Positions 23,340 to 25,415 of a DNA stretch of 64,000 bases are shown piece after piece. Position 1 is the stretch's first letter; each line of letters starts with the position of its first letter. The notes beneath the pieces are model-generated. The model saw only the letters and a list, made by a program, of their open reading frames with translations, searched no databases and was not told where the DNA came from. A program made the translations under genes and the position numbers. The stretch spans positions 73,005 to 137,004 of the forward strand of contig CACNLM010000001.1 of the NCBI GenBank assembly GCA_902621305.1, given 5' to 3'. The stretch comes from an uncultured Alphaproteobacteria bacterium (GTDB lineage: Bacteria > Pseudomonadota > Alphaproteobacteria > HIMB59 > GCA-002718135).

Positions 23340-23443
23340 ATTTTCCCTAGTTTTCTTGTATTTTTTTATTCATGCAAAAAATGCATAGCAAACTTTACTT
23401 AAATATTCTTAATAAATTTTAATAATAAAGTAAATCACCATTA

Positions 23444-23493
23444 CGTTCATCATTCTTTTTGAATGACGGAAGTAGACGAAAGTCGAAGGAACG
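23444..23493 (+). promoter_or_regulatory. glutamine riboswitch aptamer (glnA RNA motif), copy 1
   Basis: CGUUCA-UCAUUC-UUUUU-GAAUGA-CGGAAGUAG-ACGAAAGU-CGAAGGAACG. P1 pairs CGUUC with GAACG, and P2 is a 6-bp hairpin. The conserved cores CGGAAGUAG and CGAAGGAACGC match my recollection of the glnA RNA consensus. It lies in the amtB leader. Confidence 0.85.
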
Positions 23494-23511
23494 CATGCAA
23501 AGTTATAAAAT

Positions 23512-23560
23512 CGTTCAATTTGCAGTTTGCAAATCGGAAGTAGGTTAAACCGAAGGAACG
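23512..23560 (+). promoter_or_regulatory. glutamine riboswitch aptamer (glnA RNA motif), copy 2
   Basis: CGUUCA-AUUUGCA-GUU-UGCAAAU-CGGAAGUAG-GUUAAAC-CGAAGGAACG. The cores are the same as in copy 1, but the P2 helix sequence is completely different while still fully paired, which amounts to covariation. Confidence 0.85.
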
Positions 23561-23653
23561 CGGATCTTAGTAATTAATTTCCATAGCTAAGCATGAAAAG
23601 TAACACATGACTCAGTGTGAGCCATGTACTGTGAAATTTATAATGGAGGATTA

Positions 23654-24940
23654 ATGTTAAAAAAATCTATATATTTCATTGGCATTGTAACTGTCTTCTT
23701 ACTCTTTAGCTCTTACGCAAGAGCAGAGGTAGATGGTGAAGTGCAATACATATTAAATACTTTCCTATTTCTTGTATCTGGGTTCTTGGTCATGTGGATG
23801 GCAGCAGGATTTGCAATGCTTGAATCAGGACTTGTTACATCCAAAAGTGTAGCAACAATTGCAGCTAAAAACATTGGCTTGTATTCAATTGCAGGAATAA
23901 TGTTTTGGTTAGTCGGATACAATATGGCTTACGGTATACCCGCTGGTGGATTTATTGGATCTCCAATTCCTTGGAGTGATGGTAGCGCTGTCGATACAGG
24001 TTATTCCGATGGTTCTGACTGGTTCTTTCAGATGGTATTTTGTGCAACAACTTGCTCAATTGTATCTGGAACGCTAGCTGAAAGAATTAAAATTTGGCCA
24101 TTCTTTATTTTTTGTGCTTTATTAACTGGTTTCATTTATCCAATTGAAATGGGTTGGCAGTGGGGCGGAGGATACTTAGCGGAAGCTGGTTTCTCAGATT
24201 TTGCTGGTTCAACTCTAGTACATAGTGCAGGAGCAGCAGCAGCACTTGCTGGTGCAATTTTATTAGGCCCAAGACTAGGAAGATTCACTGATAGTGGTGA
24301 AGCAACTCCAATGGAGCCTTTTGCAAATTCTTCAATACCTCTTGCAACTCTTGGTGTATTTATCCTATGGCTTGGATGGTTCGGATTTAATGGTGGATCA
24401 CAACTTGCAATGGGTACATTTGATGATGTTACGGCAGTAGCAACAATATATATTAATACTAACTTGGCAGCTGGTGCAGGAGTAATGGCTTGTGCAGTAA
24501 TTTCAAGACTAGTAACTGGTAAAACAGATGTTGTTATGATGCTTAATGGTGCATTAGGTGGTCTAGTAGCAATTACAGCAGAACCATTAGCTCCATCACC
24601 AATTTTAGCAATAATCATTGGTGCAGTTGGTGGTTTAATTGTCTTCTACGGTACTAGACTTTTAATATCTCTAAAAATTGATGACGTTGTAGGTGCAATT
24701 CCTGTTCACGGTTTTGCTGGAATTTTTGGAACATTAGTTGTTCCGATTTCAAACAGTGCTGCAAGTTTTGGAGCTCAACTCTACGGTATAATAGCAATTA
24801 ATGTTTTCGTTTTTGTTGTATCATTTATTATTTGGTACATCATGAAAATGCTCTTTGGTATTAGAATTAGTGAAGAGGCTGAAAAACTTGGAACAGATAA
24901 ATCTGAAGTAGGTGTAATGGCTTACAGCATCAGAGACTAA
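23654..24940 (+). CDS. amtB: ammonium transporter (Amt family)
   Basis: A signal peptide (MLKKSIYFIGIVTVFLLFSSYARA) is followed by an 11-TM Amt fold with FAGSTLVHSAGAAAALAGA and VHGFAGIFGTL. I chose ATG 23654 because GGAGGA lies 4 nt upstream. The ORF-track start at 23624 lacks an RBS. Confidence 0.93.
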   Translation: MLKKSIYFIGIVTVFLLFSSYARAEVDGEVQYILNTFLFLVSGFLVMWMAAGFAMLESGLVTSKSVATIAAKNIGLYSIAGIMFWLVGYNMAYGIPAGGFIGSPIPWSDGSAVDTGYSDGSDWFFQMVFCATTCSIVSGTLAERIKIWPFFIFCALLTGFIYPIEMGWQWGGGYLAEAGFSDFAGSTLVHSAGAAAALAGAILLGPRLGRFTDSGEATPMEPFANSSIPLATLGVFILWLGWFGFNGGSQLAMGTFDDVTAVATIYINTNLAAGAGVMACAVISRLVTGKTDVVMMLNGALGGLVAITAEPLAPSPILAIIIGAVGGLIVFYGTRLLISLKIDDVVGAIPVHGFAGIFGTLVVPISNSAASFGAQLYGIIAINVFVFVVSFIIWYIMKMLFGIRISEEAEKLGTDKSEVGVMAYSIRD

Positions 24941-25040: not shown

Positions 25041-25415
25041 ATGACAGAAACAGAAATTATTAAAGAAAAAAAGAGAAATATATATTCCAGTTTTTTTTCA
25101 GAAGATTATGTTTCAAAATTTTTATTTAAATCAATTTTACATCATGTTATTTCATTAGAAATTTATGAAAATAATAGATTAAACGGAATTTCATTTGAAA
25201 CAATTTGTGCAAATATACCAAAGTCAATTGGTTCAAGATCATCTATTCAATCTATACTAAACGAGGCTTTGGAAAAAAATATTTTTACTAAAGAACAGAG
25301 TAAAACAGATAAGCGAATTAAAAATTATTACTTAAGTAATAACTTTTTCAATATGATTAATACTTGGTTACAGAAAGAGGGGTCTTATTTCAGTAAGTTG
25401 AGACCAAGAAATTAA
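25041..25415 (+). CDS. hypothetical protein, possible winged-helix (MarR-like) DNA-binding protein
   Basis: 124 aa. The segment ISFETICANIPKSIGSRSSIQSILNEALEKNIFTKEQSKTDKRIKNYYLS looks by eye like a helix-turn-helix plus a basic wing. There is no other recognisable motif. Confidence 0.4.
   Translation: MTETEIIKEKKRNIYSSFFSEDYVSKFLFKSILHHVISLEIYENNRLNGISFETICANIPKSIGSRSSIQSILNEALEKNIFTKEQSKTDKRIKNYYLSNNFFNMINTWLQKEGSYFSKLRPRN

Follow-up and report, generated by a model that had tools for sequence, protein, structure and literature searches.

Introduction

Glutamine-I aptamers, also termed glnA RNAs, have been reported in front of genes for PII, glutamine synthetase (GS), glutamate synthase and ammonium transporters, some of them in tandem and from marine metagenomes (Weinberg 2010, PMC2864571). 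The gifB element of Synechocystis, in which a single aptamer precedes the gene of a GS-inactivating factor, acts as an ON switch (Klahn 2018, PMC6212724), and the associations with GS, PII and amt genes have been described as restricted to uncultured strains (Bolay 2018, PMC6316151). In the 2018 literature, both the effect of glutamine on the marine examples and their taxonomic affiliation are stated to be unknown (PMC6212724; PMC6316151). The present work concerns a tandem pair of such aptamers in the 5' leader of an ammonium transporter (amt) gene, at positions 23444-23560 of a 64,000-nt stretch of DNA, referred to below as the window, from an uncultured alphaproteobacterium (assembly GCA_902621305.1, contig CACNLM010000001.1). 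The amt association and the tandem arrangement have been known since 2010, and the aptamers themselves are of the textbook kind; it is the conserved architecture around them that suggests how glutamine turns amt off.

The window has a G+C content of 29.6%, and its source assembly comprises 1.45 Mb in 41 contigs and is 87% complete; the full genome is estimated at ~1.66 Mb. The order HIMB59/AEGEAN-169 consists of the family HIMB59 (1.47 Mb, containing both cultured isolates) and the family GCA-002718135 (1.70 Mb, 29.1% GC) (PMC10734472). In what follows, f1 denotes the window's own family, inferred to be GCA-002718135 from the agreement of family make-up, genome size and G+C content with that description, with several genera and larger genomes, and f2 the sister family in the same order, with one genus and genomes of ~1.3-1.4 Mb, one closed genome included. 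The host is a streamlined, heterotrophic marine alphaproteobacterium of an abundant bacterioplankton lineage, and no link of a glutamine riboswitch to AEGEAN-169/HIMB59 was found in the literature searched.

Results and Discussion

The Aptamer Pair

The leader contains the following two elements.

23444-23493, plus strand: glutamine aptamer 1 (glutamine-I / glnA RNA), 50 nt; RF01739, 64.0 bits; compensatory changes in P2 and P3
23512-23560, plus strand: glutamine aptamer 2, 49 nt; RF01739, 59.7 bits; compensatory changes at 6/6 pairs of P2

Scanned with Infernal against all 4227 Rfam families, the 64-kb window gives two matches to RF01739, at 23442-23497 (64.0 bits, E = 7e-12) and 23510-23564 (59.7 bits, E = 1e-10), and no match to any other family, RF01704 included. 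Each of the two covers the whole model (positions 1-53 of 53) without truncation and scores ~25-29 bits above the gathering score of 35 bits; the search of the whole genome gives identical scores. The two copies, separated by 18 nt (23494-23511), share the P1 pairing CGUUC/GAACG and the cores CGGAAGUAG (E-loop/J2/3) and GAAGGAACGC (3'). Aptamer 1 is built of P1 (23444-48/23489-93), P2 (23450-55/23461-66), J2/3 (23467-75, CGGAAGUAG) and P3 (23475-77/23482-84), and aptamer 2 of P1 (23512-16/23556-60), P2 (23518-24/23528-34), J2/3 (23535-43) and P3 (23543-45/23549-51). The P2 hairpins are unrelated in sequence and each perfectly paired, UCAUUC/GAAUGA in the first copy and AUUUGCA/UGCAAAU in the second.

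In the glutamine-I structure, the terminal P1 pair C1:G59 hydrogen-bonds glutamine, and a ligand-dependent long-range pair, the G23:C60 "linchpin", caps the helix (PMC6698751, PMC11477058). All of the nucleotides reported there to contact glutamine (C1:G59, G2:C58, G22, G23 and C60) are present in both copies. They correspond to C23444:G23493, G23445:C23492, G23468, G23469 and C23494 in aptamer 1, and to C23512:G23560, G23513:C23559, G23536, G23537 and C23561 in aptamer 2.

The alignment of 85 distinct related tandem leaders reveals compensatory changes on both sides of the helix at 6/6 pairs of P2 and 3/3 pairs of P3 in the first aptamer (P2a, P3a), and at 6/6 and 1/2 pairs, respectively, in the second (P2b, P3b). 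P1 does not vary and is paired throughout (100%). Of all cells, 97.7% are paired, compared with 83.5% in shuffles (0/500 of which reach the observed value), and sliding the partners by 1-3 columns makes this proportion drop to 26-41%. Judged from sequence and covariation, it is as good as certain that 23444-23560 represents two functional-looking, canonical glutamine-I (RF01739) aptamers in the amt 5' leader.

An earlier note on this DNA, made from the letters alone, had described tandem elements of 49-50 nt lying 18 nt apart, with a shared P1, shared cores and perfect P2 hairpins, and all of these are found as described. Its interpretation of the differing hairpins as the covariation of a real structured RNA is borne out by the P2 and P3 changes across the 85 leaders, and the covariance-model check that it had proposed gives the scores quoted above. 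The leaders of amt orthologues, which it had named for comparison, keep the elements with compensatory changes, and so do paralogous leaders. The ammonium transporter that it placed downstream is confirmed by a PF00909 match, and its remark that the class is often tandem and associated with nitrogen genes agrees with the 2010 report on glnA RNAs (PMC2864571).

Conserved Architecture of the Leader

Besides the aptamers, the region up to and including the transporter gene comprises the features listed below (RBS, ribosome-binding site; SD, Shine-Dalgarno sequence; MFE, minimum free energy).

23494-23511, plus strand: inter-aptamer linker CAUGCAAAGUUAUAAAAU, nearly invariant in all f1-type tandem leaders, whatever the downstream gene
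23561-23584, plus strand: spacer with C23561 (C60 of aptamer 2), GGA (23562-64), UCC (23580-82) and the proposed anti-RBS AAUUAAUUUCCAU (23572-84)
23583-23596, plus strand: conserved 3' block AUAGCUAAGCAUGA, nearly invariant, with AUAGCU (23583-88) and GCAUG (23591-95)
23605-23627, plus strand: class-specific hairpin ACAUGACUCA-GUG-UGAGCCAUGU between the 3' block and the RBS, found in the MFE and centroid folds
23643-23656, plus strand: amt ribosome-binding region, with SD GGAGG (23645-49) and start codon ATG (23654-56), conserved in orthologous leaders
23654-24940, plus strand: Amt-family ammonium transporter gene, 428 aa; PF00909, 327.9 bits, E = 1e-97

The Amt start lies 94 nt 3' of aptamer 2 on the same strand. 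It is best set at ATG 23654, which has an SD 5 nt upstream and at whose Met the tblastn alignments of the orthologues begin.

All f1-type tandem leaders follow a common layout, consisting of the linker GC-AUGC-AAA-GUUAU-AAAAU, aptamer 2, an A/U-rich spacer ending in UUUCC, the block (AUAGCUAAGCAUGA, or AUAACUAGAGCAUGA in glnA leaders), a hairpin and the RBS. Other genera, a distant single-amplified genome (SAG), L083, and 9 metagenome contigs have this linker and 3' block as well. Since other tandems from metagenomes, L224 and L212/L279, have different linkers and lack the 3' block, the f1 design is considered a distinct subtype. In L224, each aptamer is followed by a hairpin of its own, and the leader precedes a GSII-like gene. 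L212/L279 has an 11-nt linker, stands before the gene of a 37-aa peptide and displays an ON-type logic.

The linker and the block are complementary to each other in two segments, L1, in which CAUGC (23494-98) faces GCAUG (23591-95), and L2, in which AGUUAU (23501-06) faces AUAGCU (23583-88). The helix proposed from these segments, helix L, would enclose aptamer 2; for the window leader, it turns up in the MFE fold and in the centroid fold alike. Several natural variants keep the pairing: AUAGCU is replaced by AUAACU in glnA leaders and by UAACU in L083, which turns U.G into U-A; an A-U pair becomes G.U in L083; and CAUGC becomes CGUGC in one ATP-grasp leader. When 91 leaders are aligned to a covariance model of the whole architecture (158 positions), L1 is 99.8% and L2 92.3% paired.

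The point at which aptamer and platform meet is a single nucleotide. C23494, the linchpin C60 of aptamer 1, is at the same time the first base of the L1 strand, so that the linker and the ligand-binding nucleotide overlap; we infer from this that the ligand-bound state and helix L exclude each other. In aptamer 2, the equivalent C23561 directly precedes GGA, which is able to pair, as a small hairpin S, with the UCC (23580-82) inside the proposed anti-RBS. The latter, AAUUAAUUUCCAU (23572-84), is itself complementary to AUGGAGGAUUAAU (23643-55), which extends from the SD through the AU of the start codon. Between the two, a hairpin of differing sequence occupies the same place in every gene class; in the amt leader (23605-27) it probably brings the anti-RBS and the RBS together.

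Proposed Mechanism and Direction of Switching

The preferred reading of the amt leader, based on folding models, is a glutamine-OFF translational switch that would operate via helix L, the anti-RBS and the RBS, and its probability is estimated at roughly 55%. At low glutamine, the aptamers would be loose, and the linker would keep the downstream block in helix L, aided by the GGA/UCC hairpin in the tail of aptamer 2; the RBS would be open and amt translated. At high glutamine, each aptamer would close P1 and form its G23:C60 linchpin pair. Helix L would then be lost, since its linker strand begins with the C60 of aptamer 1 and its stacking site would coincide exactly with the pocket. The freed anti-RBS would pair with the SD and the start codon across the intervening hairpin, switching translation off. 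The presence of two aptamers on one platform would sharpen the response.

The OFF direction is favoured because the ligand claims C60 and has its pocket at the site of helix L, because of the contrast with L212/L279, and because of the OFF logic of related single-aptamer leaders. The tail that aptamer 2 of the ON-type L212/L279 has from C60 onward (C-ACCUAACC) is complementary to the SD GGGAGGGUGG, whereas in the window leader the C60 tail is complementary to the anti-RBS instead, i.e., there is one inversion more. Single-aptamer leaders with a mimic of J2/3 are found before a distant Amt gene (L173 in G160) and before circularly permuted (CP) ATP-grasp genes (L178 in G172, L150 in G044). Their pyrimidine stretch (e.g., UUUCUACAACUUCC) is complementary both to J2/3 CGGAAGUAG and to a purine-rich SD that mimics J2/3 (CGGAAGGAG). 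This points to an apparent OFF design by mimicry, in which the ligand-free J2/3 would sequester the anti-SD. Physiology agrees with the OFF direction, amt and glnA being normally repressed when nitrogen is plentiful. The expectation of a glutamine-OFF logic, already expressed in the earlier note, is consistent with the architecture as modelled.

RBS Accessibility and Alternative Explanations

The readout was evaluated by a test of linker-dependent RBS accessibility with a window-swap control, in place of duplex energies. With both aptamers kept folded, the unpaired probability of the RBS (-14 to +3) was calculated for two states of the linker, either free or withdrawn together with C60. Upon withdrawal, the folding model predicts a decrease from 0.61 to 0.30 in the leaders of amt1, the first of two amt paralogues in many relatives (12/12), and from 0.57 to 0.27 in the other amt leaders (10/10). 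When random windows of the same mRNA take the place of the RBS, the drop is 0.02 +/- 0.10, compared with 0.28 for the real RBS, and only 2.7% of the control windows reach the real value (11 leaders, including amt1, amt2 and the distant L083). Consequently, the modelled switch of the amt leaders is specific to the real RBS. The glnA leader L155 (genus g9) is informative in this respect: it has the amt-type UUUCCAUA together with the amt-type SD UAUGGAGG, whereas other glnA leaders have AUUUCAUAA alongside UUAUGAAAU, a stretch made up of the start codon and the codons that open the gene. This comparison, which counts as one independent contrast, supports a putative co-evolution of the anti-RBS and the RBS.

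A number of observations speak against the proposed mechanism. Helix L is near-invariant and shows no true double compensatory change in the aligned leaders. The counts of "both sides changed" in L2 are due to a one-column register shift of the glnA rows, and covariation was rejected as a proof of the helix; helix L is consistent with all the data and unproven by covariation. The RNAduplex energies of the anti-RBS with the RBS are no better than those of random coding-sequence windows from the same A/U-rich mRNAs (z 0 to -1), and duplex energy was dropped as support. In the accessibility calculation, the withdrawal of the whole linker is a model assumption, ligand binding being known to claim C60 alone. 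No switch is modelled in the glnA leaders (0.51 to 0.49 and 0.42 to 0.41) or the ATP-grasp leaders (0.46 to 0.43); the shared architecture may act otherwise than proposed, or be read out differently for each gene. Finally, the RNAalifold consensus of 32 leaders is a strand-swapped fold, in which the 3' P1 strand of aptamer 1 faces the 5' P1 strand of aptamer 2 and two extra A-U pairs use the AU of CAUGC. If adopted without ligand, such a fold could take the linker away from helix L and thereby reverse the logic.

This last possibility corresponds to a glutamine-ON switch of the gifB kind, in which a ligand-free inter-aptamer hairpin (GAACG-C-AU with AU-CGUUC) would occlude the linker and the anti-RBS would close the RBS, until glutamine restores the P1 helices, helix L and an open RBS. 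With the aptamers forced folded and the linker free, helix L does form and the RBS is open, and those glutamine riboswitches that have been tested in vivo have all proved to be ON switches (PMC6212724, PMC6698751). The swapped fold, however, energetically competitive as it is, is the automatic outcome of two identical, sequence-constrained P1 helices. Moreover, the ligand-bound state needs C23494 as its C60 and has its pocket at the P1 base on which helix L would stack, and the single-aptamer leaders of relatives are built with OFF logic. Turning on amt and glnA by glutamine would represent positive feedback at plentiful nitrogen, contrary to known physiology, and this direction of switching is judged improbable. 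An OFF switch with a readout other than translation initiation is unlikely as well. It would involve termination at 23605-27, Rho-dependent termination or glutamine-dependent decay, with the linker and the block serving as scaffold or antiterminator. In line with it, all gene classes have a hairpin after the block; this hairpin resembles an intrinsic terminator in the main glnA leaders (GGGUA..UACCC followed by UUUUGUUG) and is followed by U7-U8 tracts in some divergent ones, and the glnA and CP-ATP-grasp leaders have no modelled RBS switch. The U-tracts are, however, inconsistent across gene classes, no alternative pairing was found that would disrupt the hairpin, and a non-translational readout leaves the RBS-specific switch of the amt leaders unexplained. 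An intrinsic terminator as the platform of amt itself was rejected, the hairpin 23605-27 being followed by ACUGUGAA without a U-tract and the plus strand having no terminator-like site in 23561-23653, between aptamer 2 and the start codon. The minus-strand match of the terminator scan (23630-23602) is this same hairpin read backwards, at a place where no gene needs a terminator. Because the main glnA leaders carry a terminator-like hairpin and the amt leader does not, the readout may differ between genes.

It can also be argued that the conservation of linker and 3' block reflects something other than their mutual pairing, such as a protein or small-RNA site, an inter-aptamer tertiary dock or a mini open reading frame (ORF) starting at the invariant GCAUGA, and that helix L is a coincidence of the short palindrome-like GCAUGC/GCAUG. 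The near-invariance exceeds the need of a helix and comes without double compensatory changes, GCAUGC is self-complementary, and the invariant AUG of the block opens ORFs of 2 to ~30 codons. Nevertheless, the complementarity extends over two distinct, collinear segments of 5 bp and 6 bp, each of the few natural changes leaves the pairing intact, the internal loop of the glnA leaders is enlarged on both strands at once, and the helix is recovered by MFE and centroid folding. Taking these features into account, a coincidence is regarded as very unlikely. The conserved AUG was rejected as the start of a leader peptide, given that the ORFs share neither length, peptide sequence nor SD.

Paralogous Pairs and the Putative Regulon

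The genome contains six aptamers in three tandem pairs, one each upstream of amt, glnA and CP_ATPgrasp_2. The two pairs located outside the window are the following.

G000:C9:31636-31755 (L005 1438-1551): second tandem pair, in the 240 nt that separate glnB (PII) from glnA (GS type I)
G000:C3:32548-32670 (L001 1436-1552): third tandem pair, before the CP_ATPgrasp_2 / Alpha-E / transglutaminase-like operon (L304 388-3575)

In the glnA leader, the second pair is followed by a G+C-rich hairpin with UUUUGUUG, resembling an intrinsic terminator, and the block AUUUCAUAAC is complementary to the start codon region UAUGAAAU of glnA. The third pair stands before the circularly permuted ATP-grasp gene, which is the head of its operon. 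In the window's own genus, aptamers are present in 22/23 genomes; 61/63 sites are paired, with a fixed distance of 11-12 nt between the ends of the model matches, and all non-redundant units (59/59) precede an Amt, GlnA or CP-ATP-grasp gene. Each f1-type pair is followed by one conserved 3' block and one RBS. In many relatives, amt1 and amt2 occur in series with one tandem pair each. Collectively, the sequences suggest that amt, glnA and the CP-ATP-grasp/Alpha-E/transglutaminase operon form a small glutamine regulon in a lineage without GlnD and GlnE.

The CP-ATP-grasp operon also has a single glutamine aptamer upstream in two unrelated lineages (L150 in G044, L178 in G172). Since at least three lineages have glutamine aptamers before this widespread operon, a nitrogen-linked role is suggested for it. 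The CP-ATP-grasp leaders (e.g., L007 and L001 1600-1675) also have an upstream ORF of 17-32 codons that starts just past their hairpin and encodes a peptide of unconserved sequence. The end of this ORF, UGAUG, overlaps the main gene's start in several genomes, an arrangement suggestive of translational coupling.

Distribution and Regulatory Context

RF01739 is present in 76/78 genomes of f1 (9/10 among the genomes of f1 genera other than the window's own) and in 0/71 genomes of f2. Sampling the class with one genome from each of 150 families adds one further family with a match, a single aptamer. A metagenome scan for divergent tandems yielded mostly chance matches and 12 real sites. The nearest AmtB homologues outside the genus belong to SAR11 single-cell genomes, with 70-77% identity, and the amt leaders of 79/80 such AmtB-relative loci lack the aptamer, which indicates that the element does not travel with the amt gene. 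The exception is L083, a SAG labelled SAR116, which has the same tandem architecture.

The protein components of nitrogen signalling were compared between the two families.

GlnD (PF08335): f1 0/39; f2 38/40
GlnE (PF03710): f1 0/39; f2 35/40
PII (PF00543): f1 31/39, single copy; f2 40/40, mostly two copies

Across f1 and f2, the distribution of GlnD and GlnE is the mirror image of that of the riboswitch, a comparison that amounts to a single phylogenetic contrast, related genomes being non-independent. In the source genome (87% complete), GlnD, GlnE and the RpoN DNA-binding domain were not detected, and there is one PII gene, glnB, just upstream of glnA. A general complementarity of GlnD and riboswitch was rejected as a rule: G172 and G044 carry GlnD together with a single aptamer, and two Pelagibacter genomes have neither. 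Two statements of the earlier note can be refined on this basis. No PII gene flanks amt, as it had observed, but the genome does possess glnB, beside glnA and with the second tandem pair in between. Likewise, its suggestion that riboswitches stand in for protein regulators fits the lack of GlnD and GlnE in f1 and the reverse situation in f2; it holds for this single contrast and not as a general rule. The exchange between f1 and f2 is a clean natural case of an RNA sensor found where a protein signalling cascade normally stands, which bears on streamlining and regulation.

A broader interpretation is put forward tentatively. The linker and the 3' block may constitute an undescribed shared platform, with a C60-based OFF inversion and both aptamer tails gating one anti-RBS (that of aptamer 1 via helix L, that of aptamer 2 via the GGA/UCC hairpin), and this platform would replace the GlnD/GlnE/PII cascade for three gene classes in f1.

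Surroundings of the Locus

The genes 5' of the amt leader are unrelated (an oxidoreductase, a sugar-phosphate isomerase-like protein and a GATase), and no PII gene is found among the genes flanking the locus in the window. Downstream of amt, an ORF of 124 aa (25041-25415) has no Pfam match; in many relatives, its position is taken by the second amt paralogue, amt2 (~67% identity), whose own tandem pair lies ~2 kb after the first. One more conserved sequence is located upstream of the aptamers.

23372-23386, plus strand: palindromic box ATGCAAAAAATGCAT, pattern ATGCA-N5(A/T)-TGCAT, 72 nt 5' of aptamer 1

Nearly all f1 leaders of amt1 and CP-ATP-grasp genes have this box at a fixed position (-71 to -74), and it is absent from the amt2 and glnA leaders of f1. 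The genome has 4 sites, compared with 0 for a reversed-pattern control. Two of the four are at riboswitch leaders, and the remaining two adjoin unrelated genes, a glycosyltransferase and a CcrM-like methylase/RNase HII pair. With just 2/4 sites at riboswitch leaders, the box was rejected as a marker of a nitrogen regulon. It may be a candidate transcription-factor site and provide a second layer of control, its membership in the riboswitch system being uncertain.

Comparison with Known Systems

The locus ties the marine glnA/amt aptamers to a defined host lineage and to a regulon of three gene classes, and, with C23494, helix L and the anti-RBS, it assigns exact coordinates to a proposed OFF mechanism that can be tested. 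With the glutamine-I riboswitch it shares the same three-way junction (P1 CGUUC/GAACG, variable P2 and P3, CGGAAGUAG and GAAGGAACGC) and the position in the leader of a nitrogen gene. Glutamine-II (Downstream-peptide motif, RF01704) has the glutamine pocket, the ligand-stabilised CGUUC/GAACG pairing and a long-range capping pair in common with it (PMC6698751), but is a pseudoknot instead of a three-way junction and an ON switch of picocyanobacteria.

The tandem glycine riboswitch likewise consists of two homologous aptamers for one amino acid, with a conserved linker engaged in a helix outside the cores and a single downstream platform. The fold, however, is unrelated, and the leader-linker P0 helix of the glycine system stabilises binding, whereas the linker helix of the amt leader is proposed to compete with it. 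In terms of logic, the proposal parallels translational OFF riboswitches with three pairing layers, anti-anti-SD, anti-SD and SD, for example the thiamine pyrophosphate (TPP) riboswitch of E. coli thiM: the ligand removes the anti-anti-SD, and the anti-SD closes the SD. The amt leader would differ from thiM in that the anti-anti-RBS lies between two aptamers, with its first nucleotide (C60) alone belonging to an aptamer, and in that the pairing with the RBS spans a hairpin; here the scheme is a proposal made in silico. Compared with gifB of Synechocystis, the only characterised glutamine-I example, which has a single aptamer and is an ON switch, the present leader combines two aptamers with an invariant linker and a block that resemble an OFF platform, in a heterotrophic alphaproteobacterium.

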